From Candidatus Omnitrophota bacterium (GTDB taxonomy: Bacteria; Omnitrophota; Gorgyraeia; B26-G9), in the NCBI GenBank assembly GCA_043806135.1, contig JAZDHG010000009.1, forward strand, positions 430 to 64,429: 64,000 nucleotides of DNA, in the 5' to 3' direction. Under the pieces are notes generated by a model, which worked only from the letters and a program-made list of their open reading frames with translations, had not been told where the DNA came from and did no database searches. The first letter of the stretch is position 1, and each line of letters opens with the position of its first letter. A program made the translations under genes and the position numbers. Positions 6,053 through 62,980 of this stretch are shown here, piece after piece.

Positions 6053-7375
6053 TTGACTTTTTCCCGTTCCTCTTTTATAATAACTGTAATGCTCATAGGT
6101 AGAGATTTCTTATACTCAATAATTTTTTTACGTTTTGCTCTTGCGACGGTTATTCTGATAATCAATACTACTCTTTTTGGATTAGCCCATACGCAGGTTT
6201 ATTTCCTGATATCTACTATTTATATTCTCACCATTTTATATTCATTGATGGCTTTAGTAAAGTTTTCCAACACGGCTTTTTTATACCTGCAGATCATCCT
6301 TGATCTGGTAATTGAGACACTGCTTATTCACTACACCGGCGGGGTAGATTCTGTGCTGGTTTTATTGCTGCCGCTTTCGACTATTGCTGCCGGTATCGTT
6401 ATCTCCGGGCGGGCTGCGATAATGATCGCTCTCATGGGCAGCGCAATGTACGCAGGTATTGTGAGCCTTGAATTCTGGGGAATAATTCCTTTACCGGAGG
6501 GGTTTCTAAATGATCTTAATCATGAGGGGTCTTATGTCTTTGCACTGCTCTATTTCCGTGTTACCGTGTTCTGCATCATCGGTTTCTTAAGCGCTTATAT
6601 TTCAGAACAGTTAAGCAGAAAAGACAAAGTGCTTATTTCTTTGCAGGAAAAACTTCGCCGAGAAGACAGACTTTATGCTATCGGAAAACTGGCGGCCAAT
6701 ACGGCGCATGAAATACGCAACCCGCTGGCCTCAATCTCCGGCTGTGTGGAAGCGTTAAACGAGAGCCTTGTTTTAGAAGGCAATAATGAAAAACTATTCA
6801 AGCTGATCATGAAAGAGACTACGCGCTTGAACGATATAATCAACGGGCTGCTTGAATATGTTAAACCGCGCAGGCTGCAGCTTGAAAGGGTAAACATCTC
6901 AAAGATTCTGGATGAGGTCATATTCCTGATTAAAAGCAGTAAGGATTTTAAAAAAGATATCTTAATAAAAAAAGAAGGGCAAGAAAATGGTTTGAGCGTG
7001 ATCTGTGATCCCCAACAGATCAAACAGGTTTTTTTTAACCTGCTTATTAATGCGGTTGAGGCGGTAGATGAAAATGGACGTATAGTTATAACCCAGGAGG
7101 TCAATTCTGACAAGGGTCAAATTGTGATAAGTTTCAGTGATAACGGAGAGGGGATTTCCCCGGATCGCATGGAATCTCTTTTTGAGCCTTTTTCCAGCGG
7201 CAAAGATACAGGTGTGGGATTGGGGCTGGCCATAGTTCTTAGCATAATAGAGGAGCATAAAGGCAATATTAATGTCGAAACTAAAAAGGGTAAGGGGACG
7301 AAGTTTTCCGTTTGCTTACCTTTAAATGAAAAAAATACAGGTGAGAGTGATGCAGGGAAAGATACTTTTAGTTGA
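6053..7375 (+). CDS. pilS: Sensor histidine kinase, PilS-like (multi-TM N-terminus plus HisKA/HATPase)
   Basis: About six N-terminal TM helices; H-box TAHEIRNPLASI; G1/G2 boxes (DNGEGISPD, GVGLGLAIV). Immediately followed by a sigma54-activator response regulator. Confidence 0.6.
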   Translation: MTFSRSSFIITVMLIGRDFLYSIIFLRFALATVILIINTTLFGLAHTQVYFLISTIYILTILYSLMALVKFSNTAFLYLQIILDLVIETLLIHYTGGVDSVLVLLLPLSTIAAGIVISGRAAIMIALMGSAMYAGIVSLEFWGIIPLPEGFLNDLNHEGSYVFALLYFRVTVFCIIGFLSAYISEQLSRKDKVLISLQEKLRREDRLYAIGKLAANTAHEIRNPLASISGCVEALNESLVLEGNNEKLFKLIMKETTRLNDIINGLLEYVKPRRLQLERVNISKILDEVIFLIKSSKDFKKDILIKKEGQENGLSVICDPQQIKQVFFNLLINAVEAVDENGRIVITQEVNSDKGQIVISFSDNGEGISPDRMESLFEPFSSGKDTGVGLGLAIVLSIIEEHKGNINVETKKGKGTKFSVCLPLNEKNTGESDAGKDTFS

Positions 7376-8702: not shown

Positions 8703-8982
8703 GGCAAGTTAAAAGTTAAAAGTAGATTAGCTGATGGCTCATAGCTCATGGGAAAAGCAAAAGAAACCGAAAGATGAAGGATGACCGCTGCGCTGGGAGG
8801 AAGGACGCAAAAGCAGTTATGAATGACTAATTATGAGTTACGAGTGAAAAAGGTGAGCGGTAGCGTTGCCCCCTCCACACGGCAAGGCGGGCAGGCGTTT
8901 CGTCTTACGGCAACGTGCATCGTTTTAAAAACAGACTAGTTTTAGCCGTAACCATTAAACGTAACCGATACGGGCTTCGCTA

Positions 8983-9000
8983 CCGTTAGACGTTACCGAA
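8983..9000 (+). promoter_or_regulatory. Candidate upstream activator motifs (CCGTTAGA + TTACCGAA) about 270 nt upstream of the sigma54 promoter
   Basis: ctaCCGTTAGAcgTTACCGAAtgtaaata carries the same two short motifs found in the pseudopilin loci upstream regions (1213-1260 and 1470-1483). Confidence 0.3.
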
Positions 9001-9260
9001 TGTAAATATATCTTCTTGATAGTACAGTAAATTTAAAAGTAACTGCAAAAGATGAGAAGGTATTAGGCCTGCCATTTAAATCGTTTTCTTTTATAAACTC
9101 TTTATAAGGAAATAATTTTCAGAGAATGAGAAAAAAATTTCCTGCATTTAAAAGGTCAAGGAATTTATCCACAATTAGTGCTTAATGTATTAAACATGTA
9201 ACTTATTAGATCGCAGTAAATTGTGCGTATTTTTAGCTTGAATTTAATTTAAATAATATT

Positions 9261-9276
9261 TGGCACGCCTGTTGCT
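9261..9276 (+). promoter_or_regulatory. Sigma54 (-24/-12) promoter TGGCAC-N5-TTGC
   Basis: TGGCACgcctgTTGCt at 9261-9276, about 60 nt upstream of the pilin start; fits the adjacent PilR-like enhancer-binding protein. Confidence 0.8.
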
Positions 9277-9337
9277 CTTTATAACATGGGCTTTAACTAT
9301 TTGTTAACCGTTTTTGAAATTAGAAGGAGGTGTTATT

Positions 9338-9823
9338 ATGAATCGTAAAGGTTTTACTCTTGTTGAAATCATGATTGTTGTAGCGATTATCGCATTACTC
9401 GCAGCTATTGCTATACCTAACCTTTTACGTGCCAGACTTAACGCAAATGAAGCAGCAGCTCAGTCAACATTAAAAACTGTTTCTACAGCTTGTGAAAGCT
9501 ATAGAGCAGCGCAAACCCTGCCATCATATGATCCGTCGGCAACTGGAGCCAATATGACCGGCGCTACTCCGCCTTACCTGGATGTGGGGATTTTCGCGGC
9601 AGCTGGAAGACAAGGATATCTATTTGTATATTCACCACAGGCTGCTGTAGGAGGTATTATACAGCAATATGTTGCTTCTGCTGAACCGGTAACTGACAAT
9701 GTTACTGGTGCCAGAGTATTTGCTATTAATGAAACAGGTGTTTTAAGAGCAGCGGTAGTAGGAACGGCGGCTCCAACGACAACAGCAGCTTATCAAGCGG
9801 CAGCTTTTGTTGTTGTTCAGTAA
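9338..9823 (+). CDS. pilA: Type IVa major pilin PilA (MNRKG|FTLVEIMIVVAIIALLAAIAIPNLL)
   Basis: Canonical class III signal peptide and N-methyl-Phe/Glu5 motif. AGGAGG SD 8 nt upstream of the ATG at 9338. Confidence 0.9.
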   Translation: MNRKGFTLVEIMIVVAIIALLAAIAIPNLLRARLNANEAAAQSTLKTVSTACESYRAAQTLPSYDPSATGANMTGATPPYLDVGIFAAAGRQGYLFVYSPQAAVGGIIQQYVASAEPVTDNVTGARVFAINETGVLRAAVVGTAAPTTTAAYQAAAFVVVQ

Positions 9824-9856
9824 TCTGACGCCTTGTCTTTTGAGAGAATTAAAAAA

Positions 9857-9889
9857 GGAAGCGGTAAAAAATCCCGCTTCCTTTTTTTA
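9857..9889 (+). terminator. Rho-independent terminator after pilA1
   Basis: GGAAGCGG-taaaaaatc-CCGCTTCC followed by TTTTTTT. Confidence 0.7.
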
Positions 9890-9971
9890 TTGCTAAACTG
9901 AATTTTTTGATATATTATAACTATAGAAAATTTTAAGCTTTTAACCTGATCAGAAAATTGCCTGTTTGGAT

Positions 9972-10469
9972 ATGCGGAAATTTAAAAATAAGTTTGCTTA
10001 TAAATTTATAAGGGCATTCACTTTGGTTGAAATACTGATCGTGGTTACGATCATTGCTATGCTTGCGGCATTAGCTATTCCTAATCTATTGTACAGCCGA
10101 ATGCTTTCTAATGAGGCTATTGCCCAAGGGACTTTAAAAACAATTGCAAGCTCTTGTGAATCCTTTCGCACGACAGATATGACGCGTAGTTTTCCGGTAG
10201 CAATGTCTGACTTAACGACGGCTGTACCGCCTTATTTTGCCGATGCTGTTGATACCGCTACAACGGGTGCCCCTAAGAGCGGTTATTTTTTTGAATATAT
10301 ACTCATTGGTGCGCAGCAATTTGTCTGTTCGGCCAGGCCTGCTACATATCGCGCAACTGGTATCAGGACTTTTGCTGTAAACGAAACAGGGCTGCTCCGG
10401 GCAATTGATAATAACGGAGTACTCATAAATACAGAGGCATTGTATGAAGCAATGACTCCTGCTCAATAA
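9972..10469 (+). CDS. Second type IV pilin paralog (leader MRKFKNKFAYKFIRA|FTLVEILIVVTIIAMLAALAIPNLL)
   Basis: Pilin N-terminal helix nearly identical to pilA1 but with a longer leader and Ala at position -1; the C-terminal domain diverges. Confidence 0.75.
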   Translation: MRKFKNKFAYKFIRAFTLVEILIVVTIIAMLAALAIPNLLYSRMLSNEAIAQGTLKTIASSCESFRTTDMTRSFPVAMSDLTTAVPPYFADAVDTATTGAPKSGYFFEYILIGAQQFVCSARPATYRATGIRTFAVNETGLLRAIDNNGVLINTEALYEAMTPAQ

Positions 10470-16973: not shown

Positions 16974-17014
16974 AAGGCGTATTGGATATAGGCAAAATTA
17001 AATAATGGAAGGAC

Positions 17015-17042
17015 TTGACAATATATGATTTAAGGGTATAAT
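17015..17042 (+). promoter_or_regulatory. Consensus sigma70 promoter of the rimP-nusA-infB operon
   Basis: TTGACA (17015-17020), 16-nt spacer, TATAAT (17037-17042). Confidence 0.6.
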
Positions 17043-17074
17043 AAACACAACTGCTAGGGGAAACAAAAATGTAA

Positions 17075-18723: not shown

Positions 18724-18880
18724 GGTTCTTTCTTGTTTAAATTGAACGAAACAACCTGATTATACCGATTAAAAGTCCGATTACAGGGGGCATTTTTAAT
18801 TTGTTATAATAACTTGCAAATCATTAAGTTATATAAAACTATTCAACCTAATTAAGAATGACCCAAAAATAAGGGGTTAT

Positions 18881-20857
18881 ATGAGTAAAAGAGTTCATGA
18901 ATTAGCAAAAGAACTGGGATACTCCAGTAAAGAGCTGGTCAAAAAGCTCAATGAAATGCATGTTGATGTCAAGGGGCATATGAGTGCTATTGACGATGAA
19001 ACTGCAGAAATTGTGTGTCATGAACTCCTGGCTAAAAAAGAACCGGAAAAGAAAAAACAAAAAATAAAAAAGAAGGGGGAAGAAAAAGCAGCCCCGGAAT
19101 TAAAACCATTACAGGTTAAAGTCCCCATAAGTGTGAAAGACTTTGCTTCTAAAATTAATAAGAGTTCTCCAGATGTGATTAAAAAATTAATGACAATGAA
19201 AATCATGGCCTCGGTTAATCAAAATCTTGATGAGGAAACTACCAGACAAATAGCTCGGGAATTCGGTTTTTCCCTGGAAAAAGCACTAACTGAAGAAGAG
19301 ACCCTGCTGATCAAACACAAGCAATCCGATAACGGACAGGGGCTCAAGTTTAGATCTCCGGTAGTCACACTGATGGGACATGTTGATCATGGGAAAACAT
19401 CATTACTCGATGTTTTGCGCAAATCAAATCTAACCTCTAAAGAAGCGGGCGGAATAACGCAGCATATAGGCGCCTATGAGGTGAACCTTCCTAAGGGTAA
19501 AATAACATTTTTGGATACTCCGGGGCACGAGGCTTTTACGGCTATGCGCTCAAGAGGAGCGACAATTACGGATATTGTTATTGTTGTTGTGGCTGCGGAT
19601 GACGGGTTAATGCCCCAGACGTATGAGGCGATTAATCATGCCAAGGCAGCGGGTGTGCCTATGGTTGTTGCCATAAATAAAGTAGATTTGCCGGGAGCTG
19701 ATGTTGATAAAGTAAAAAGACAGCTTGCTGATATCGGCCTGACCAGTGAAGACTGGGGCGGCAGTACTATTACAGTTGAAGTTTCGGCAAAAAAAGAAAC
19801 AGGGATTAAAAAACTGCTTGAGATGATATTGCTTGAAGCAGAAATGCTTGAACTCAAAGCGAACCCGGACCGGGTAGCAAAAGGTGTTATTATTGAAAGC
19901 AAACTTTCAAGAGGCAGTGGTCCCACGGCAACAATGCTTGTGCAGAGCGGAACATTGCATCCGGGAGATGTTTTTGTCTGCGGCTTGACTCACGGCAAGA
20001 TAAAATCAATGACCAATGATCTGGGCGAAAGGATGGAAAGTGCCGGACCTTCTGTTCCTGTTGAAATATCTGGGATATCTCATGTGCCTATGGCTGGTGA
20101 TAAATTCTATGTTGTTGAGGATGAAAAAAAAGCCAGGGAACTTTCCGTTGCTAAGAATGAAAACCTGCGTCAGGAAAAGCTTATGCCTGCGCAGCGGGTC
20201 AGTTTGGAGGATCTTTTTAACCGGGCACAAGAGGGAAAGATCAAGGAGCTTAAGATTATCATTAAATCCGATGTACAGGGATCGCTTGAGGCCTTAGGCA
20301 GTTCTTTGCAGCAATTAGGGACAAAGGATATCGGTGTTGCCATTATCCATTCTCAGGTAGGAACGATCAGCGAGTCGGATGTAATGCTGGCTATCGCAAG
20401 TGAGGCTGTAATTATAGGTTTTCATGTGGGAATCGATGCTAAAGCCAAGGAAGTCGCGGGAAAAAAGGCTGTTGATATCAGGCTTTACCGTATTATTTAT
20501 GAGGCGATAAACGACGTGCGTTTAAGCATGGAAGGACTGCTTGAGCCTACGATCAAAGAAACGTTTCTCGGAAGGGCTAAAATTCTGCAGGTTTTCAAGA
20601 TCTCAAAGCTGGGTAAAATATGCGGCTGTATGGTTGTAAAGGGAAAATTTGTGCGTAATGCGGAAATTGCCCGCCTTTTTCGTAATGAGGAATGCCTATA
20701 CGAGGGCAAACTGGAATCATTGAAGAGATACAAGGATGATGTGAAAGAAGTGGGCGAAGGGCTTGAATGTGGTATCGGGCTTGATAAGTTTGATTCCATG
20801 CAAAGCGATGATATTATTGAGTGTTATCGACTCGAAAAAATTGCACGAAAATTATAA
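18881..20857 (+). CDS. infB: Translation initiation factor IF-2
   Basis: [26 protein letters not shown]-motifs; IF2 domain order. Confidence 0.95.
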
Positions 20858-21844: not shown

Positions 21845-22584
21845 AATATAAAGTTAATTTAGAAATTTTCGAAGGGCCGCTTGACTTATTGCTTTACCTT
21901 ATAAGGAAAAGCCATCTTAATATCTATGATATTCCTATTGCTAAGATTACTGAGCAGTATTTGGAATACCTGGAATTTATGCGTTTGCTGGATCTTGGTA
22001 TTGCCGGGGAATTTCTGGTTATGGCAGCGACCTTGATGCATATAAAATCAAAAATGCTGCTGCCTCCTGATGAAACCGAGCCTGAAGTTGAAGAAGAAGA
22101 TCCTAGGGCGGAACTTGTAAAAAAACTTCTTGAGTATAAGAAATTCAAGGAGGCGGCAAGCTATTTAGAGGAATGTGAAACCGTACAGCGTAAAATATTC
22201 AAGCGCATTAATCCTGCAGCGGATGTTGAGCCGGAAGAGGAGATTTTCTTTGAAACAAGCCTTTTTGATCTGATCGGAGCTTTTTCTAAAGCCTTGAAAG
22301 ATGTGCCCCGCGATATTTTCAAAGAGATCATTGAAGATGAGTTTACAGTTGATGGTAAGATACACGACCTGCTTCATGTTTTGGTCAAAAAGAGAAAACT
22401 CTCACTCAGCGAAATGTTTGAAAATGCAAAGAATAAGGTGGAGGTAGTGGTCACTTTTTTGGCTATTTTGGAGCTGATCAGACAGCAGGAAATCGTGGCG
22501 GCTCAAAAGGGACTGTTCGGAGAAATTTTTGTTTTTCTCAACGAAGAAAGAATTTTGCCTCCAATGCATGTTAGTACAATATAG
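21841..22584 (+). CDS. scpA: Segregation and condensation protein A
   Basis: ScpA N-terminus (FEGPLDLLLYLIRKSHLNIYDIPIAKIT). Confidence 0.85.
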   Translation: MKYKVNLEIFEGPLDLLLYLIRKSHLNIYDIPIAKITEQYLEYLEFMRLLDLGIAGEFLVMAATLMHIKSKMLLPPDETEPEVEEEDPRAELVKKLLEYKKFKEAASYLEECETVQRKIFKRINPAADVEPEEEIFFETSLFDLIGAFSKALKDVPRDIFKEIIEDEFTVDGKIHDLLHVLVKKRKLSLSEMFENAKNKVEVVVTFLAILELIRQQEIVAAQKGLFGEIFVFLNEERILPPMHVSTI

Positions 22585-22854
22585 ACATCCTGTAACGAGT
22601 GAGCATAGGGATGTCTTGATCTCAGAGATTAAAAACTTGATCACAGCGATATACTAATATAAATTAATCTTTGCCCCGAGAAATCTGCACCCTGAAATTT
22701 TTTTGGAATTTCGGGTACTTAGTCCTGGGAATGCTGCGCATTCCACAGGGGAAGATTTCCGGAGTTGGGTGCCCCGCAAGGGTATAATCTATTAATAACC
22801 GTTGTAATCAGGTATAATCCAGATTATGTATGAGGATTATACCAGGAGTTAAGT
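22585..22854 (+). repeat. Repeat family A, full copy (terminator-like hairpin + ~130-nt structured core + alternative helices ending in the scpB SD)
   Basis: About 95% identical over ~190 nt to 57856-58054; the 5' hairpin CATCC...GGATG+UCUUG resembles copies at 57803 and 1292. Confidence 0.7.
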
Positions 22855-23595
22855 ATGGACGAATTCAATCTAAAGAAAATAATTGAGGCGTTGATGTTTG
22901 TCAGCGAGAAGCCGCTCAACTTTAAGCAAATTTTAGAAATATGTTCAGAGACTGAATTGTCCGAGGTGAAGGACGCGATGAACCAATTGCAGGAGCATTA
23001 TAACCTTCATGAGCGGGGAATACATATCCGTGAAGTTGCCGGAGGCTATCAATTCTCCTCAAACCCTGATTGCGCCGATTATCTCAAAAAACTTTATAAG
23101 ACACGCCGGGTTTTTAGACTTTCGGCACCGGCCTTGGAAACACTTGCGATAATCGCTTATAAACAGCCGATAACCCGCTCTGAGATCGAATTTATTCGCG
23201 GGGTCAATGTGGATGGAGTTGTAAAAAACCTAGAGGACCGAGATCTAGTAAAAATAAAAGGACGCAAAGAGGTCCCCGGCAAGCCGTTGCTTTATGGGAC
23301 TACGGATACATTCCTGCACTATTTCGGCCTTAAATCATTGCAGGGTCTGCCGAGCTTGGAAGAATTTAAGGCTCAAAATATGGAATATGTGCAGGATGAG
23401 CAGCCATTGGTTCTGGAAGAAAGTACGGCCGGTATTGCTGTTGATCAAGATACGGAAAATTCCATTAATAATGAAAATGCTATCGCTCAGGACACCGGCG
23501 ATGCTTTAGTATCTGATGAAAATGAAGAGGTATTTGAAAACGGAGAAGAAGACGATGGGAAAAGTGAACATAAAGAAGCTGCGAGAAGCAATTAA
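22855..23595 (+). CDS. scpB: Segregation and condensation protein B
   Basis: ScpB N-terminal winged helix (IEALMFVSEKPL...) and an acidic C-terminal tail. Confidence 0.85.
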   Translation: MDEFNLKKIIEALMFVSEKPLNFKQILEICSETELSEVKDAMNQLQEHYNLHERGIHIREVAGGYQFSSNPDCADYLKKLYKTRRVFRLSAPALETLAIIAYKQPITRSEIEFIRGVNVDGVVKNLEDRDLVKIKGRKEVPGKPLLYGTTDTFLHYFGLKSLQGLPSLEEFKAQNMEYVQDEQPLVLEESTAGIAVDQDTENSINNENAIAQDTGDALVSDENEEVFENGEEDDGKSEHKEAARSN

Positions 23596-31009: not shown

Positions 31010-31058
31010 GTTATCAGTTAGTTTATTTAAAAAATTTCTGGCACATGTTTGAAACAGT

Positions 31059-31216
31059 GGCTGTGCTCCGCCGCAGCGGACAGGCTGCCCCTTAGCCCCC
31101 AGCCTTCCCCCGCACCAGAAAGACGGAGTCTTACGGTGCAGGGTAAAATTTCCTTTGTTAAATTAAGAAACCATGCCATGTATCGAGCTTTGCTCTGGTG
31201 CATGGGAATCAAAGCT
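31059..31216 (+). repeat. Repeat family B copy 1 (structured ~150-nt element)
   Basis: Conserved with 54792-54949 and 62848-62980. Internal hairpins GCACC-AGA-AAGAC-GGA-GTCTT-AC-GGTGC and CCATGTA...TRCATGG. Confidence 0.7.
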
Positions 31217-39150: not shown

Positions 39151-39740
39151 TGTTTTCAAAGAGCGGGTGCATAATTACAAACCAGGCGATGAAAACTAGT
39201 TCACATACCCAGACACCAAAGGCCATGGGTTTGGAGCTCAGAGTTCCCGTTTTATATGCGGAGACCTCTGTATAGACAATAAATTTTGTTAGGCGAAAGT
39301 AAAAAAGATTTTTCTGAAAAATATTTTTACTCATTCTCGACTGACATCCTGTCATTCTCCGAGGTAAGTTATAGCTGCCAGACATCCTGTCGCATATATA
39401 TCTTAAATCCGTAAAAACATTTCCCCGTAAAATCTAGGTTACTCATAAATCTTCTCCGTATAAAAATCCGGATTGTCGACATAAACTGCATTTGCAGTTT
39501 TTAAGACCTGGTTATGTATTTCAAGGTCCAAAATAGTTATTCACATTCTGAGACTGATTTTTTTTATTTTCTAGCTGATAAAAGTTTTCCCTGCGATATG
39601 AGCCATTAGCTATCCTGCAATTGCTTTTTTTATTGATTTAAAATCTTAAATTGACCTTTTTGTGTTTTTTTGCTATATTTAATTCTATATCCTTATGGTC
39701 AAAAATCTCTACAAATATAACCTTACGGAGATAAATTCAC

Positions 39741-40232
39741 GTGAGTAAAGATGTTTTTACGCATCATCGGCTTCAGTTTAAATCCCATATCGGGTTTTTG
39801 CTGGCAGCCATCGGCTCTGCTGTGGGGATGGGAAATATATGGCGTTTTTCGTATCTTTGTTATAAAAACGACGGCGTGTTTCTGATGCCGTACTTTATAG
39901 CCTTGTTCGCAGGCGCTATCCCCTTGATGAGCCTGGAGATAGCTCTAGGACATAAAATGCGCGGTTCAGCACCGGCATCGGTTGTCAGTATTGATAAAAA
40001 ATGGGAGCGGGATGTTTCTGTTAAATTCATTGCTGCGCTTATATTACTGGGATTACTGCTCACTACGATATTTGAGGAGATCGCTGCGCCCTACGGTAAT
40101 TACTCACGCCTTGCGATTATCCTTATTGGCAGAGATGGGATCATCATGACTGTTTTTGTCGCGTTTTTTGCCGCCTTAAGCGCATGGAAAGTAGATCCGC
40201 AGCACATGATGATTGAACTGGGAAAAAATTAG
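39741..40232 (+). pseudogene. Truncated neurotransmitter:sodium symporter (NSS/SNF) family transporter; only the N-terminal ~95 aa are family-like
   Basis: GFLLAAIGSAVGMGNIWRFSYLCYKNDGVFLMPYFIALFAGAIPLMSLEIALG matches NSS TM1-TM2. The ORF is 163 aa against ~450-500 for an intact NSS. GTG start. Confidence 0.5.
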
Positions 40233-42371: not shown

Positions 42372-43013
42372 ATGATAGAAAACGTGCAGAATAAGAAAAA
42401 CGGTTTTACCCCGTTAGAGAAAGATAATAATTTTAATCGCGGGTTGAAAACTTATTTAGCCGATGCTAGCTTAAAGGTATCACCTGAGCATGCCGTTAGA
42501 GTTCGAAGAACTCTAACGGGGTTTACCCCGCTTAGAGATAATAAGAAGAAACATAATGTTCTCGGAGCATACTTTATAACAGGTGTTAATAATAATTTTT
42601 GTTCAAATAAAAAACATGGTTATAAATCTCTAACGGGGTTTACCTTAATTGAAATATTAATCGCCTTGACGATTTTGGGCATTGGATTGGTTTCGGTGTT
42701 GGCTTATTTGCCGATTGCTCTTGATGCTTCAAAAAAAGCAGCGGATTTAACAACAGCAGCTTTGATAGCTCAAAAATACATTGAGGGAATAAAATCAGCA
42801 AGCAGTAATGATATAACTTCTGCGGACGCATATGATACCTTGGGAGTATATGCGGCGGATAGTGATTTTGATGGTTTTTCTTATTTTATATCTATAAGCA
42901 ATCCCGGCGCATCAGACACGAAAGAAGTTACTGTAAATGTACGGTGGAGCTTTAAGGGTAAAGATAGTGTTGAAACTTTCAGAACGATGATTGTAAAATA
43001 CGATCCGAACTAA
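42372..43013 (+). CDS. Pseudopilin-like protein with a long stop-free N-terminal region before the SLTG|FTLIEILIALTILGIG motif
   Basis: Canonical prepilin motif about 90 codons into the ORF. The upstream region carries repeated GFTPLEK / LTGFTPL coding motifs that are really nucleotide-level inverted repeats. The start is uncertain. Confidence 0.55.
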   Translation: MIENVQNKKNGFTPLEKDNNFNRGLKTYLADASLKVSPEHAVRVRRTLTGFTPLRDNKKKHNVLGAYFITGVNNNFCSNKKHGYKSLTGFTLIEILIALTILGIGLVSVLAYLPIALDASKKAADLTTAALIAQKYIEGIKSASSNDITSADAYDTLGVYAADSDFDGFSYFISISNPGASDTKEVTVNVRWSFKGKDSVETFRTMIVKYDPN

Positions 43014-47705: not shown

Positions 47706-47759
47706 AGTAGCGAGTAGCAAGAAGCGAGTAGCAAGAAAAAAGAACGAAGTCCGAGCAAT

Positions 47760-47900
47760 GATGGACGATCACTTCCTACATAATGCTTGGCGGGCAGGCG
47801 CTTTGCTCCTTGGGACGAAGGACGCAAAATAAATTATAAATTACTAGTTATGAGTGACGAGTTAAAAGACAAAGAAGTAAAAAGGTAAAAGTAAAAAGAA
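47760..47900 (+). repeat. Repeat family C copy (ggcgggcaggcg / ggacgcaaaa / ttatgagtgacgagt / gtaaaaaggtaaaagtaaaaag blocks)
   Basis: Shares blocks with 8790-8930 (same orientation, blocks permuted) and with 31470-31610 (inverted). Confidence 0.45.
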
Positions 47901-48394
47901 CAGACTGTGTTATCCTGAAATAGGTTTACAGAAAAATAAATTAACCGCAGATGGACGCGGATGTTCGCGGATAAAGAAGTATACATTTAAGCCATTATAA
48001 CAAGACAAAGTTTCTTGAAGTTACTTAAGGTTGCAGTATGGAGTTTGATGTCGGGAGGAAGGAAATAAAAATCATATATTAGTTTGCGGCGGGAAAAGCC
48101 ACGACCTTCATAAACGCAACAATCAATAAGAAAAATGAATTTTTCTTTTAATGTTGATTTATGAAGGCCTAACTCGGCGATGCCGAGTTAAATATATGAT
48201 TTTTACGGTACCAATCCGCGCTAATCAGCGTTTATCGAGTGAATGTATTTAATGAGCGGGCGGTTAATTAAATTATTTGTGTTTAAAAGTGTCAACTATT
48301 GCAGGACAAGACAACTATTGGCTATCGACTATTGACCATTGATCAGACTTGTATACTCCTAGACTAATATGTCCAATAAAAGGATAAGAAATAC

Positions 48395-54641: not shown

Positions 54642-54791
54642 GAAAAAAAAGATTGAACTGGAAACTAAGGGGTCAGCCTGTCAACTCGAAACTAATTGAC
54701 ATGGGAAACAATAGAAAGAGGGACGTTGTTTAAGGTTTTAAAGTGTAGTTATGGTCATCAAAAGCTAATTATTTAGTGCATTTTTGAGGTA

Positions 54792-54949
54792 GGGGCTGTG
54801 CTCCGCCACAGCGGACAGGCTGCCCCTTAAAGCACAGCCTTCCCCCGCACCAGAAAGACGGAGTCTTGCAGTGCAGGGTAAAATTTCATTTGTAAAATTA
54901 AGAAACCATGCCATGTATCGAGATTTGCTCTGGTACATGGGAAGCAAAG
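54792..54949 (+). repeat. Repeat family B copy 2
   Basis: See 31059-31216; same orientation. Confidence 0.7.
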
Positions 54950-55624: not shown

Positions 55625-57799
55625 ATGCCGAAGAATTTGAAGGTCAAATTTTTATTAATAAGCGCATTAGTTGTTTTTTGTGTTTGGGTTATTTACCCGA
55701 TTCAGGAAAAAATTAATCTCGGACTTGATCTGCAGGGCGGGATATTTTTGACCTTGCAAGTCGATATGAGCAAGCTGCCCAAAAATATTAAGGAAGATGT
55801 ACGTTCGGATATTGTGGACAGGACGATTGAGATTATCCGCAAAAGAGTCGATCAATTCGGGGTAAAGGAACCCTCGATAACCCGCCAGGGAGAAAACAGG
55901 ATCATTGTTCAGCTGCCCGGGGTTACGGACAGAAAGCGGGCCCGCGCACTTATCGGAAAAACAGCTCAGCTTGAGTTCAGGATCGTAAACGATGATGATG
56001 AGATGATGAGAGCGGCGATTGAAGGCGATGTTCCTGCCGGATATGTATTAACTAAAGACGAGGATGATAAAGAACTGCTTCTTGAAGAAACAGCAGTAAT
56101 GACCGGAGACAGCCTGTCGGATGCTATTGTCAGCCGTGATCAATATGGTAGACCAAGTGTAAAACTGGAGTTTACCGGAACAGGGGCGACTAAATTTTCC
56201 AATATAACAGGTGCGAATGTAAACAGGAGACTGGCTATTGTGCTTGATAATGAGGTTTATTCGGCACCAATGATCAGAGAACGCATCTCAGGCGGAAACG
56301 CGGAAATTACAGGAAGCTTCAGCGCTAACGATGCTAAAGACCTTTCTACTGTATTACGCACCGGTGCATTGCCGGCTCCCATAACATTCGGGGAAGAGCG
56401 TACGGTCGGACCGCTGCTTGGGCAGGATTCCATAAATAGCGGGGTGAAAGCGACACTTTACGGAGGTCTTGCGGTGTTCTTATTTATGGCCTTTTATTAC
56501 TTGGTAGGAGGTGTCCTGGCAAATATTGCCCTGCTTTTTAATATCCTACTGGTGTTTGCTGCTCTTGTGATCATGAAAGCTACGCTGACTTTGCCCGGTA
56601 TTGCCGGTATTGGACTGACTATCGGTATGGCTGTGGATGCGAATGTGTTGATAAACGAGCGCATCAGAGAAGAATTAAAACTCGGGAAGTCAACACGTAC
56701 GGCAATAAATAACGGTTACAGCCGCGCTTTCCCGGCGATTTTAGATTCAAATGTCACAACGATAATTGCGGCTATTCTGCTGGTTTGGCTGGGCTCAGGT
56801 CCTGTAAGGGGATTCGGCCTTACCCTGATTATCGGTTTAATAGCAAGTATGTTTACGGCGATTGTAGTGACCCGTATGCTTCTTGACATGCTTACTTTGA
56901 AATGGAAAGAACTGCCGCTTAAGATGATGCAGCTTATTTCTGAGACAAAAATTGATTTTATTAAAGCAAGATGGATTTTCTATACGATATCGATCGTTCT
57001 CATAGTCGCCGGAATGTTTTTATTCTCCCGCCGGGGTGATGATAACTATGGCATTGATTTTGCCGGCGGTTCCCTTCAGGAGTTTCAATTCGAAAAACCG
57101 GTGGAGATTGACAGTCTGCGTCTGGCGATGTCAAAAATCGGCCTGGCAGATGCTTTGATACAGCAGGATAAAAAGAAGCCGGAGATTGTTCTGATCAGAA
57201 CTGAAGAAGATAAAGCAGACGCAATTATAGGTGAATTCGCAAACACATTTCCGGACAATAAGGCAGAGATATTGAGTGTTGAAAGCGTTGGTCCGGTCGT
57301 GGGAAGGCTTTTAAAGAAAAACGCGGCAATGGCGTTTATGCTTGCATTGCTGGCGATATGTATATATATCTGGATAAGGTTCAAAGACTTTGTCTACGGG
57401 ATTGCCGGTGTTGTCTCTCTATTCCATGACGTTCTTGTTGCCATTGCTTTTTGCGCCCTGACAAACAGACCGATTGACCTGTTAATAGTTACTGCGTTAA
57501 TGACAATAGCAGGGTATTCTATAAACGACACAATCGTTACCTATGACCGTATTCGGGAAAATCTACGCTTAATGCGCAAAACTTCTTTCAGAGATGTTAT
57601 TAATATAAGTATCAACCAGACCCTGGCACGTACAATATGGACATCGGTAACCACCTTGTTTATTGTTTTTGCCATTTACCTGATGGGCGGCAGGGTGCTG
57701 CATAATTTTGCCTTTGTATTGATAATCGGCCTTTTCAGCGGAGTTTACTCAACTGTTTTTATTGCCAGTCCGCTGGTCTATGCTTGGGAGAAAAAGTAA
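55625..57799 (+). CDS. secDF: Protein translocase subunit SecDF (fused)
   Basis: 724 aa; two periplasmic domains and 12 TM helices; typical SecD (ALIGKTAQLEFR) and SecF regions. Confidence 0.9.
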   Translation: MPKNLKVKFLLISALVVFCVWVIYPIQEKINLGLDLQGGIFLTLQVDMSKLPKNIKEDVRSDIVDRTIEIIRKRVDQFGVKEPSITRQGENRIIVQLPGVTDRKRARALIGKTAQLEFRIVNDDDEMMRAAIEGDVPAGYVLTKDEDDKELLLEETAVMTGDSLSDAIVSRDQYGRPSVKLEFTGTGATKFSNITGANVNRRLAIVLDNEVYSAPMIRERISGGNAEITGSFSANDAKDLSTVLRTGALPAPITFGEERTVGPLLGQDSINSGVKATLYGGLAVFLFMAFYYLVGGVLANIALLFNILLVFAALVIMKATLTLPGIAGIGLTIGMAVDANVLINERIREELKLGKSTRTAINNGYSRAFPAILDSNVTTIIAAILLVWLGSGPVRGFGLTLIIGLIASMFTAIVVTRMLLDMLTLKWKELPLKMMQLISETKIDFIKARWIFYTISIVLIVAGMFLFSRRGDDNYGIDFAGGSLQEFQFEKPVEIDSLRLAMSKIGLADALIQQDKKKPEIVLIRTEEDKADAIIGEFANTFPDNKAEILSVESVGPVVGRLLKKNAAMAFMLALLAICIYIWIRFKDFVYGIAGVVSLFHDVLVAIAFCALTNRPIDLLIVTALMTIAGYSINDTIVTYDRIRENLRLMRKTSFRDVINISINQTLARTIWTSVTTLFIVFAIYLMGGRVLHNFAFVLIIGLFSGVYSTVFIASPLVYAWEKK

Positions 57800-58054
57800 A
57801 GACATCCTATAACGATAAAGTAGCAGGATGTTTTGATCACATAGATTAGATGGAGATTAATGGTTTAATCCTTGCCCCGAGAAATCTGCACCCTGAAATT
57901 TTTTTGGAATTTCGGGTACTTAGTCCTGGGAATGCTGCGCATTCCACAGGGGAAGATTTCCGGAGTTGGGTGCCCCGCAAGGGTATAATCTGTTATTAAT
58001 CGTTGTAATCAGGTATAATCCAGCTTAAGCATGAGGATTATACCAAGGAGTTTT
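57800..58054 (+). repeat. Repeat family A, full copy 2 (ends in the SD of rnfE)
   Basis: About 95% identical to 22664-22854 over the core. Confidence 0.7.
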
Positions 58055-58687
58055 ATGAACAAAAAGATTGTTTATCTTAAAAATTGTATAAAAAGCGGAG
58101 TTTGCCTTGAAAATCCGGTTTTCAGTTTAATGCTTGGATTGTGTCCGACGCTTGCGGTTACGGTTACTGCGGAAAACGGCATTGGGATAGGGCTTGCCGC
58201 AACATTTGTCCTGCTTGGCTCAAATGTAATTATTTCAATGATAAAGAATTTTGTGCCCCCTCAGGTACGTATTCCTTGTTATATCCTGGTAATTGCGACG
58301 TTTGTTACAATCGTTAAATTACTTTTACAAACTTATGTGCCCTTGATTTATGCTAAACTGGGGCTGTTTGTGGATATTATGGTTGTGAACTGTATAATCC
58401 TCGGCCGTGCCGAGGCATTTGCCAGTAAAAATACGGTGAGCATGTCTGCAGCTGACGCCCTGGGCATGGGTATAGGATTTACACTTGCGTCCGCAGGTAT
58501 CGGGGCTATACGCGAAATCCTGGGTGCGGGAACATTGCTTGGCAGGCCTTTGTTCGGGCCGTTATTTAATCCAATGCTGGTAATGATTTTGCCGCCGGGA
58601 GCTTTTTTGACGATTGGTGTTATTATAGCGGTTTTAAATCGTCTTAACCCTGGCCGGGAAAAATCCCAGAGCGGATGTTGTAATTAA
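58055..58687 (+). CDS. rnfE: Rnf/Nqr-type electron transport complex subunit RnfE
   Basis: NPVFSLMLGLCPTLAVTVTAENGIGIGLAATFVLLGSNV is the RnfE/NqrD signature; AAGGAG SD (supplied by the repeat) 5 nt upstream. Confidence 0.8.
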   Translation: MNKKIVYLKNCIKSGVCLENPVFSLMLGLCPTLAVTVTAENGIGIGLAATFVLLGSNVIISMIKNFVPPQVRIPCYILVIATFVTIVKLLLQTYVPLIYAKLGLFVDIMVVNCIILGRAEAFASKNTVSMSAADALGMGIGFTLASAGIGAIREILGAGTLLGRPLFGPLFNPMLVMILPPGAFLTIGVIIAVLNRLNPGREKSQSGCCN

Positions 58688-62689: not shown

Positions 62690-62847
62690 TTAGGCGTTTT
62701 GGCTCAGAAAGAGGTGGCGGTTCTATTTGATTGATGAATGATATTAGTTTTAACAGAGAACGATTCTTGAAAATAAGAAATGTTTTTGTTTTATGTTGTT
62801 GGGGTGATGCACCCGCATGATTTTCACTGAAAATCAAAACGCAAGTA

Positions 62848-62980
62848 CAGGCCTGCCCCAGACCCCAGCCTTCCCCCGCACCAGAAAGACGGAGTCTTAC
62901 GGTGCAGGGTAAAATTTCATTTGTTAAATTATGAAGCCATGCCATGTATCGAGCTTTACCCTGGTACATGGGAAGCAAAA
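62848..62980 (+). repeat. Repeat family B copy 3 (5'-truncated relative to copies 1 and 2)
   Basis: See 31059-31216; same orientation. Confidence 0.65.

Follow-up and report, generated by a model that had tools for sequence, protein, structure and literature searches.

A family of intercistronic repeats in an Omnitrophota contig

The window, meaning the whole 64,000-nt stretch of DNA analysed here, was placed in Candidatus Omnitrophota by SecDF-anchored loci from GTDB genomes. Every convincing gene in it lies on the + strand, and several operon junctions measure ~9 nt. Three gene junctions are occupied by copies of a short repeat, here termed family A. Copy A lies between the scpA stop codon (22582–22584) and the Shine–Dalgarno sequence (SD, 22844–22848) and ATG (22855) of scpB. 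Copy B lies between the secDF stop codon (57797–57799) and the SD (58046–58050) and ATG (58055) of rnfE, all four genes being assigned by Pfam. Copy C is bounded by the terminator of a c-di-GMP-I riboswitch on one side and by the SD (1438–1442) and ATG (1449) of a pseudopilin gene on the other. The stop-to-SD placement originally noted before scpB and rnfE holds for copies A and B; copy C starts after a riboswitch terminator. That riboswitch (Rfam RF01051, 36.3 bits) spans 1146–1220, with its terminator at ~1256–1280, upstream of the pseudopilin operon. In the related locus L094, two similar riboswitch and terminator units apparently stand in tandem (~9100–9350 and ~9720–9990).

Alignment of the window against itself (blastn) bore out the reported ~95% identity between copies with unrelated flanks: 22664–22850 and 57865–58052 are 95.7% identical over 188 nt. 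A 5′ hairpin module recurs in all three copies at 76–84% identity in the same comparison (22583–22650, 57799–57859 and 1289–1355). Neither self-blastn nor nhmmer with a family profile found a copy in the 64-kb window beyond A, B and C. Their features, all on the + strand, are as follows.

22583–22616, +: copy A 5′ (left-end) hairpin AGACATCCT...GGGATGTCT, overlapping the AG of the scpA stop TAG
22617–22673, +: copy A left arm of CTTGATC / AGATTA repeat units, one duplicated, with the palindrome apex at its TTTG end; colinear with L088 at the same genomic site
22674–22784, +: copy A 111-nt core, CCCCGAG...GCAAGGGTA, GC-rich and structured, inserted secondarily at TTTG^TAATCT; identical to 57875–57985
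22785–22810, +: copy A right arm of TAATC repeat units, the left arm inverted
22811–22843, +: copy A 3′ (right-end) hairpin GGTATAATCC-loop-GGATTATACC, both arms nearly invariant in six copies
22844–22857, +: copy A regenerated SD AGGAG, 6-nt spacer and scpB ATG; the first AG repeats the AG at 22583–22584
57800–57833, +: copy B 5′ hairpin, directly after the secDF stop TAA
57834–57874, +: copy B left arm, with CCTTG at its end
57875–57985, +: copy B 111-nt core, identical to the copy A core
57986–58045, +: copy B right arm and 3′ hairpin (GGTATAATCC at 58012–58021, GGATTATACC at 58035–58044)
58046–58057, +: copy B regenerated SD AGGAG and rnfE ATG (58055); empty sites in L002 and L011
1289–1437, +: copy C, a coreless variant with a 5′ hairpin (1289–1321), a left arm and a different cargo containing a TATAAT box
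1438–1451, +: copy C regenerated SD AGGAG and pseudopilin ATG (1449); empty sites in L094 and L095

The right-end hairpin of copy C is represented by its 3′ arm only (1427–1437). This copy had been described as degenerate and coreless. It does lack the core, but it is not decayed, as it carries a different internal segment common to L092 and L093.

Anatomy of the backbone

The family sample comprises seven distinct copies at four independent sites, the scpA–scpB site being occupied in four genomes (the window, L088–L090, L092 and L093). Comparison of these copies gives a backbone of ~140–160 nt made up of a left hairpin, a GATTA array, an inverted TAATC array and a right hairpin. The GATTA and TAATC pentamers are spaced ~10 nt apart, and the two inverted arrays together form a long imperfect palindrome. 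For example, the element of L084, an unrelated metagenome contig, contains the pentamers 10 times against 0.57 expected, at spacings of 9–11 nt. Four are direct and on the left, five are inverted and on the right, and one more GATTA lies in the 3′ arm of the right-end hairpin. The predicted fold of the L084 element has z = −6.8, and the whole element in the window folds with z = −3.9 relative to shuffled sequence.

The two terminal hairpins differ in sequence and sit at the very ends of the element, with the family forms (A)AGACATCCT...AGGATGTCTT on the left and GGTATAATCC...GGATTATACC on the right. The 9-bp stem of the left-end hairpin is paired in 96.8% of cells across the seven copies, as against 33–56% when the register is slid. 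Substitutions within it include one compensatory pair (C–G to U–A) and four G·U changes on the + strand. With a single compensatory pair, and a shuffle control that is not significant, covariation in the hairpins is weak. Terminal inverted repeats are absent: the ends, ACATCCT... and ...GATTATACC, fail to match in every junction phase, and the only inverted part is the internal GATTAC...GTAATC palindrome.

The element has no ORF. Six exact sequences that might have been called in it as spurious ORFs are missing from the protein collection searched, and a concatenated multi-frame query gave no match. ARAGORN found no tRNA or tmRNA, and a hammerhead core motif is not visible by eye on either strand. 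The element also lacks CTCCT, the anti-SD-like complement of its target that a guide might carry.

Insertion inside Shine–Dalgarno sequences

Related Omnitrophota genomes contain clean empty sites for all three window positions, in which only ~9 nt separate the stop codon, or the riboswitch terminator, from the start codon. The secDF–rnfE junction is empty in L002 and L011 (SecDF 91% and 89% identical, respectively), where the stop is followed by 9–10 nt and the rnfE ATG (GTAAAGGATCATTATG in L002, ATGAAGGAAGTCAAATG in L011). No element was found downstream of secDF in any related secDF locus compared, L002 and L011 having been read directly. The scpA–scpB junction is empty, with a 9-nt gap, in five related genomes (L085, L086/L087, L091, L096 and L097). 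It reads ATATAGGAGTGAAGTATG / CAATATAGGAGTGAAGTATG in L085 and L086 and GTGTAGGAGTGGAGTATG in L091, and the stop TAG at this site overlaps the SD TAGGAG. The filled site in the window reads CAATATAG, followed by the element (ACATCC...TATACC plus AG) and GAGTTAAGTATG. Empty riboswitch–pseudopilin sites in L094 and L095 read ...GGTCGGTTTTTTGTCTTTA(T/A)AAGGAG...ATG, and the window has GTCTTTAGAAG, the element (CCATCC...TATACT plus AG) and GAGTGTGGAAATG. The fourth site, in L084, lies between guaA-like and lemA-like neighbours and has the junctions TTTAAG^ACATCC...TATACC^AGGAGG.

The junctions are alike at all four independent sites, with the form (T/A)AG^ACATCC...TATAC(C/T)(A)^AG-GAG. The dinucleotide AG stands at both junctions in four of the four filled sites and occurs once only in empty sites. 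It may represent a 2-bp duplication or a crossover dinucleotide, or may belong to the element itself. The empty sites in relatives, together with the AG on both sides and the restored AGGAG, identify all three window copies as insertions inside an SD. With AG at both junctions, the gene downstream retains an intact AGGAG in its usual position before the start codon, and the stop codon of the upstream gene is left in place.

Every copy seen points the same way as its flanking genes. It had been proposed that random orientation would mark a selfish MITE. The uniform orientation seen here would follow equally well from the asymmetry of the target, which has AGGAG on the coding strand. Since all window genes lie on one strand, an alignment with transcription is inseparable here from one with replication. 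On the left flank, conservation is limited to WAG, and on the right flank GAG is conserved too. Targeting of AG alone would put most neutral hits in long intergenic regions; because all four sites are at an SD, recognition presumably exceeds AG, an argument that is a rough estimate and carries no computed statistic. Both target specificity and orientation bias rest on small numbers, seven copies at four sites.

Relatives and history

A metagenome scan with the 5′-hairpin pattern yielded L084 as the sole true relative, coreless, without cargo and oriented with its genes. Two further hits, L082 and L083, were rejected as chance matches inside coding sequence. Backbone patterns had no match in viral contigs, and blastn against plasmids and phages found none. 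At the same genomic site as copy A, the L088 backbone is coreless and colinear with that of copy A, to which it is 86% identical over 161 ungapped columns; a 312-nt MITE with terminal inverted repeats is nested in its left arm. Internal content is modular across the family, with the core in copies A and B only and another cargo in copy C, L092 and L093.

A neighbour-joining tree of seven concatenated flanking proteins (2545 columns) separates (L092, L093, L088) from ((window, L085), L091). Occupancy of the scpA–scpB site, filled in the window, L088, L092 and L093 and empty in five genomes, is at odds with this tree. So is element similarity, copy A being closest to L088: identity is 86%, with colinearity, between copy A and L088, as against 78% between L088 and L092. 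Simple vertical inheritance of the scpA–scpB copy is supported by neither tree nor element similarity. The history fits either repeated hits on one preferred target, or an exchange of copies between lineages, or selected retention with precise loss elsewhere. Mobility combined with a strong target preference is favoured by the clean empty sites and the conflict with the tree. Elements that share a site are nonetheless 86–88% identical between genomes whose 4-fold degenerate sites are 44–53% identical, and conservation of the scpA–scpB element equals that of promoter-bearing intergenic regions. This difference could reflect purifying selection at the level of the host, that is, a real function, instead of repeated insertion.

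A nested core at the palindrome apex

The core of copies A and B is exactly 111 nt long, with a GC content of 52% against 32% in the backbone. Its boundaries at TTTG^TAATCT are unique, and no target duplication flanks it. The two cores show 0 differences in 111 positions, whereas their backbones are ~90% identical. When the core is excised, copies A and B read ...TTAATC(T/C)TTG^TAATCT..., and the backbones of L088, L093 and L084 read ...TTAATC(T/A)TTG^TAATCT...; L092, likewise core-free, has diverged to TTAATTTTCGTAATCC. The core is missing from all four backbones in other genomes, namely L088, L092 and L093 at scpA–scpB and L084 elsewhere, and from the scpA–scpB junction in each of the eight other genomes examined. 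Backbones with an intact apex carry it in both cases in the window and in 0 of 4 cases in other genomes. These comparisons establish, at the level of sequence, that the core is a second, later insertion at the palindrome apex, found in this genome only. It would be either mobile itself or copied by gene conversion. Identity at 111 of 111 positions against ~90% in the backbone points to a recent copy rather than a conserved aptamer.

Searches for the core elsewhere, with exact and degenerate patterns, gave no matches in 185,579 species genomes (exact 36-mer), in JGI metagenomes (21-base pattern) or in viral contigs, and 0.94 Mb of related loci held no further copy. The nested helices originally described for the core are reproduced by its predicted fold (−44.8 kcal/mol, z = −2.7). 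By folding, the minus strand scores z = −4.7 and the plus strand z = −2.7. Two 5′ arms competing for a single 3′ arm had also been proposed, and all three 10-mers are present (GGTATAATCT at 22781, GGTATAATCC at 22811 and GGATTATACC at 22834). However, GGTATAATCT is a by-product of the junction between core and backbone. It arises where the core end GGGTA abuts the backbone TAATCT, and coreless relatives read TTGTAATCT.

Alternative readings

The duplicated core invites two explanations of its own. One treats it as an entity in its own right, a putative small-RNA gene or else a new minimal mobile structured element that would home to the apex TTTG^TAATCT. Identical copies at exactly the same position in backbones that differ by ~10%, its presence in the intact-apex backbones of the window and in none of four elsewhere, its distinct GC content, the lack of a target duplication and its compact predicted fold all speak for such an entity. 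Yet there are two copies only, a pattern that conversion of one copy by the other would equally produce, and the genome, metagenome and viral contigs searched and the 0.94 Mb of related loci yielded no third. We regard this explanation as rather unlikely. The other explanation, that the duplication is an assembly or binning artefact, draws on the origin of the window in a metagenome-assembled genome (MAG) and on an independent Logan assembly that breaks inside the element, as is expected for a repeat. It is extremely improbable: copies A and B differ in their backbones and in their flanks, which are syntenic, the Logan contig matches at 100% over the 68 nt of the copy A 3′ module that it contains, and independent assemblies from ENA, Logan, NCBI and JGI include members of the family.

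Two further readings give the element a role in the host. In one, the core would be a riboswitch or other cis-regulatory RNA and serve as the aptamer, while two GGUAUAAUC arms competing for GGAUUAUACC would make up the expression platform of scpB and rnfE. Its multi-helix fold, as predicted, is stabler than shuffled sequence, the element directly adjoins the SD, and G·U pairs in P3 favour the + strand. Against this, the Rfam scan that had been proposed, run at gathering thresholds across the whole window and at E ≤ 10 across 22500–22950, matched no family to the element and yielded just the unrelated c-di-GMP-I riboswitch and a chance Flavo-1 hit. The downstream genes scpB and rnfE are functionally unrelated, orthologous junctions lack the element or have a backbone without the core, and the 3′ hairpin excludes the SD and has no U-tract. 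Identical cores within diverged backbones display no covariation. Because the first arm is made by the insertion junction, where the core end meets the backbone, the riboswitch-platform reading falls, and we consider riboswitch control of scpB and rnfE highly improbable. The hairpin at the 5′ end, described as terminator-like, has a 16-nt loop and no U-run, and a terminator scan finds none there. Of the portable terminator–promoter–RBS cassette suggested alongside, portability and the precise adjacency to the SD stand. Promoter and terminator scans of the element found no terminator and no convincing sigma-70 promoter, and inspection by eye found none of the TATAAT boxes to have a −35 at 16–18 nt. 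In the other reading, which we consider rather unlikely, the element would be an intercistronic expression cassette that was domesticated, mobile now or once and kept by the host for a function. Candidate functions are an internal promoter (GGTATAAT boxes), hairpins stabilising mRNA ends, an RNase III site or an uncoupled SD for the downstream gene. Such a cassette would suit scpA–scpB elements that remain 86–88% identical between genomes with ~50% identical 4-fold sites, and the window's clearest promoters of sigma-70 type (~995–1016 and 17013–17043) have GGTATAAT as their −10 form. Single-base changes in the left-end stem are mostly G·U on the + strand, and copy C stands between a c-di-GMP riboswitch terminator and its gene, where the element must at least permit read-through. 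Weighing on the other side are the TATAAT boxes without a −35 at the right spacing, five related genomes that do without the element at scpA–scpB, and the absence of any element downstream of secDF in the relatives compared. The freely variable internal cargo also counts against it, and the conflict between element similarity and the species tree favours repeated arrival over vertical retention.

Other repeats and features of these genomes

The window and its relatives contain several additional repeats. A separate MITE with perfect 12-bp terminal inverted repeats (CCCGTTAGAGAA...TTCTCTAACGGG) occurs at 1472–1672 and 42410–42637 of the window and at 9593–9904 of L088. It is flanked by a 5–6-bp duplication (TTTAC / ATATAC) and lies in frame in the leader of two prepilin-type genes. 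Both genes read GFT/PLEK...SLTG/FTL(V/I)EIL, with ~70 residues added before the processing motif; the orthologues P0122 and P0124 start MKKKKGFTLVEIL and have no MITE in the leader. A second family occupies the nusA–infB junction in the window (18724–18864) and in L088 (5610–5810), and the site is empty in L085 (~6279–6288). Its ends resemble terminal inverted repeats (GGTTCTTTCTTG... / ...AAGAATGA(C/T)CC), and its 8-bp duplication, AAAAATA(G/A), includes the stop codon. Like family A, this element contains the GATTAC / GTAATC palindrome module, of which half is deleted in the window copy, and it also has a TGTTATAAT box. An IS256-type (Transposase_mut) gene fragment at 19325–19735 of L096 is a possible source of MITEs with 8-bp duplications, though not of family A.

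A third family (31040–31172, 54779–54907 and 62847–62938) is GC-rich and 89–93% identical, and has no Rfam match at gathering score. Its copies run into a small ORF starting MPCIE(L/I)CSG(A/T)WE, beyond which the ORFs diverge. A short repeat at 8794–8850 and 47811–47867 (84% over 57 nt) lies inside long non-coding stretches (8703–9313 and 47706–48394) that look like decayed mobile-element debris. At 39151–40232, a 590-nt non-coding stretch precedes a 163-aa ORF, probably a gene remnant, whose match to the sodium:neurotransmitter symporter family is confined to the first 71 of 524 positions. Finally, −10 boxes of the GGTATAAT type number 31 in the window (≤ 1 mismatch) against 13.9 expected.

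A probable mobile element that rebuilds its target

The empty and filled sites, the recurrent junctions and the history at scpA–scpB make it likely that family A is a mobile DNA element of the non-autonomous kind, nested and mosaic in structure, specific to one clade of Candidatus Omnitrophota and targeted to SDs. The element integrates at the SD-like sequence (T/A)AG^GAG and rebuilds AGGAG. Given an asymmetric target, it would come to lie in the orientation of the genes and be co-transcribed within operons. Like classical MITEs, it is multi-copy (three copies in 64 kb and others in four other assemblies), non-coding and polymorphic for presence and absence. A classical MITE bounded by terminal inverted repeats was rejected because the element has none. 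The 2-nt junction repeat, the phased sub-terminal inverted arrays and the absence of terminal inverted repeats would point to a recombinase or single-strand mechanism and against a classical DDE transposase. An AG core and phased GATTA arrays are consistent with the 2-nt core and recombinase-binding motifs of IS110- or IS607-type elements. Mobilisation may be of the site-specific-recombinase or single-strand type (IS607-, IS110- or IS200/IS605-like), with the enzyme supplied in trans; no transposase was found among the 26 window ORFs scanned (~40% of the window genes), and none flanks any copy. More speculatively, family A might be the non-autonomous representative of a hitherto undescribed class of transposons whose recombinase or guide RNA recognises and rebuilds the SD, with the core as a new minimal structured mobile module or a guide- or bridge-type RNA that homes to the apex. 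We think this extension improbable.

What the element does to its host can be framed in terms of RNA. As family A splits operons and separates a riboswitch terminator from its gene, it presumably must allow read-through. In a read-through transcript, one hairpin would closely follow the upstream stop, a second, long and central, could be processed, and a third would lie directly in front of the SD. These three predicted hairpins could contribute to transcript stabilisation or processing. The element may therefore be tolerated, and perhaps exploited, as an intercistronic spacer that would involve no ligand sensing.

These results remove a false riboswitch candidate and provide, at three loci of an uncultivated phylum, empty-site proof of a small mobile element that inserts inside ribosome-binding sites and restores them. 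Insertion into an SD followed by its restoration is a way for selfish DNA to live in tightly packed operons. Our literature search found no report on Omnitrophota repeats or on SD-targeting MITEs. If SD specificity holds genome-wide, it would be a new target preference, and the recombinase could possibly serve as a site-specific insertion tool. A transposon class that recognises the SD, if true, would be one that colonises 9-nt operon junctions without polar damage. In-frame MITEs in prepilin leaders and elements nested within elements make these genomes suitable for studying how mobile DNA is tolerated in very compact genomes.

Comparison with known systems

Among known elements with end hairpins or repeat arrays, IS607 (serine recombinase), IS110/IS1111 (DEDD recombinase, bridge RNA) and IS200/IS605 (HUH) lack terminal inverted repeats. 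They use a defined short target with zero or two repeated bases, leave precise empty sites and insert in a fixed orientation. Family A shares with them the lack of terminal inverted repeats, the end hairpins and arrays, the short defined target, the precise empty sites and the fixed orientation. It differs in having no recombinase gene within it or, among the ORFs scanned, linked to it, in its unlike hairpins, which are at the very ends and not set in, and in the absence of a guide-like complement of the target (CTCCT). To our knowledge, an SD-like target is unreported for the IS607, IS110 and IS200/IS605 families. PATEs derived from IS200/IS605 have like sub-terminal hairpins at their two ends and insert 3′ of a fixed tetra- or pentanucleotide with no duplication; family A has a hairpin at either end, but the two differ in sequence and are terminal, and its flanks are conserved as WAG on the left and GAG on the right.

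Other parallels are found among short bacterial repeats. The BIME/REP elements of enterobacteria are short, ORF-less, palindromic intergenic repeats with interchangeable modules, co-transcribed and targeted by further insertions. Family A is likewise short, intergenic, ORF-less, modular and palindromic, is presumably co-transcribed in operons and is itself an insertion target. Unlike BIME/REP, it sits inside the SD and not after a stop or terminator, has distinct left and right hairpins, and occurs in a single orientation; it has no sequence similarity to them and no visible partner of the RAYT type. ERIC/IRU and the Neisseria Correia elements (CREE) are imperfect palindromes of 100–160 nt in transcribed intergenic DNA; their RNA forms long hairpins, and they can give rise to promoters or change how an mRNA is processed. 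They have terminal inverted repeats, a TA target duplication in the case of Correia, and insert in both orientations, whereas family A has no terminal inverted repeats, AG at both junctions, an AGGAG target and one orientation. The mycobacterial MIRU are 40–100-bp tandem units whose small ORFs overlap stop and start codons. Family A is similarly intercistronic, touches the upstream stop and the downstream start signals and follows the operon direction, but as a single structured unit without an ORF. In lifestyle, therefore, family A resembles BIME/REP, ERIC, Correia and MIRU elements, and it is set apart from them by its SD target, its strict orientation, its lack of terminal inverted repeats and its nested structured cargo.
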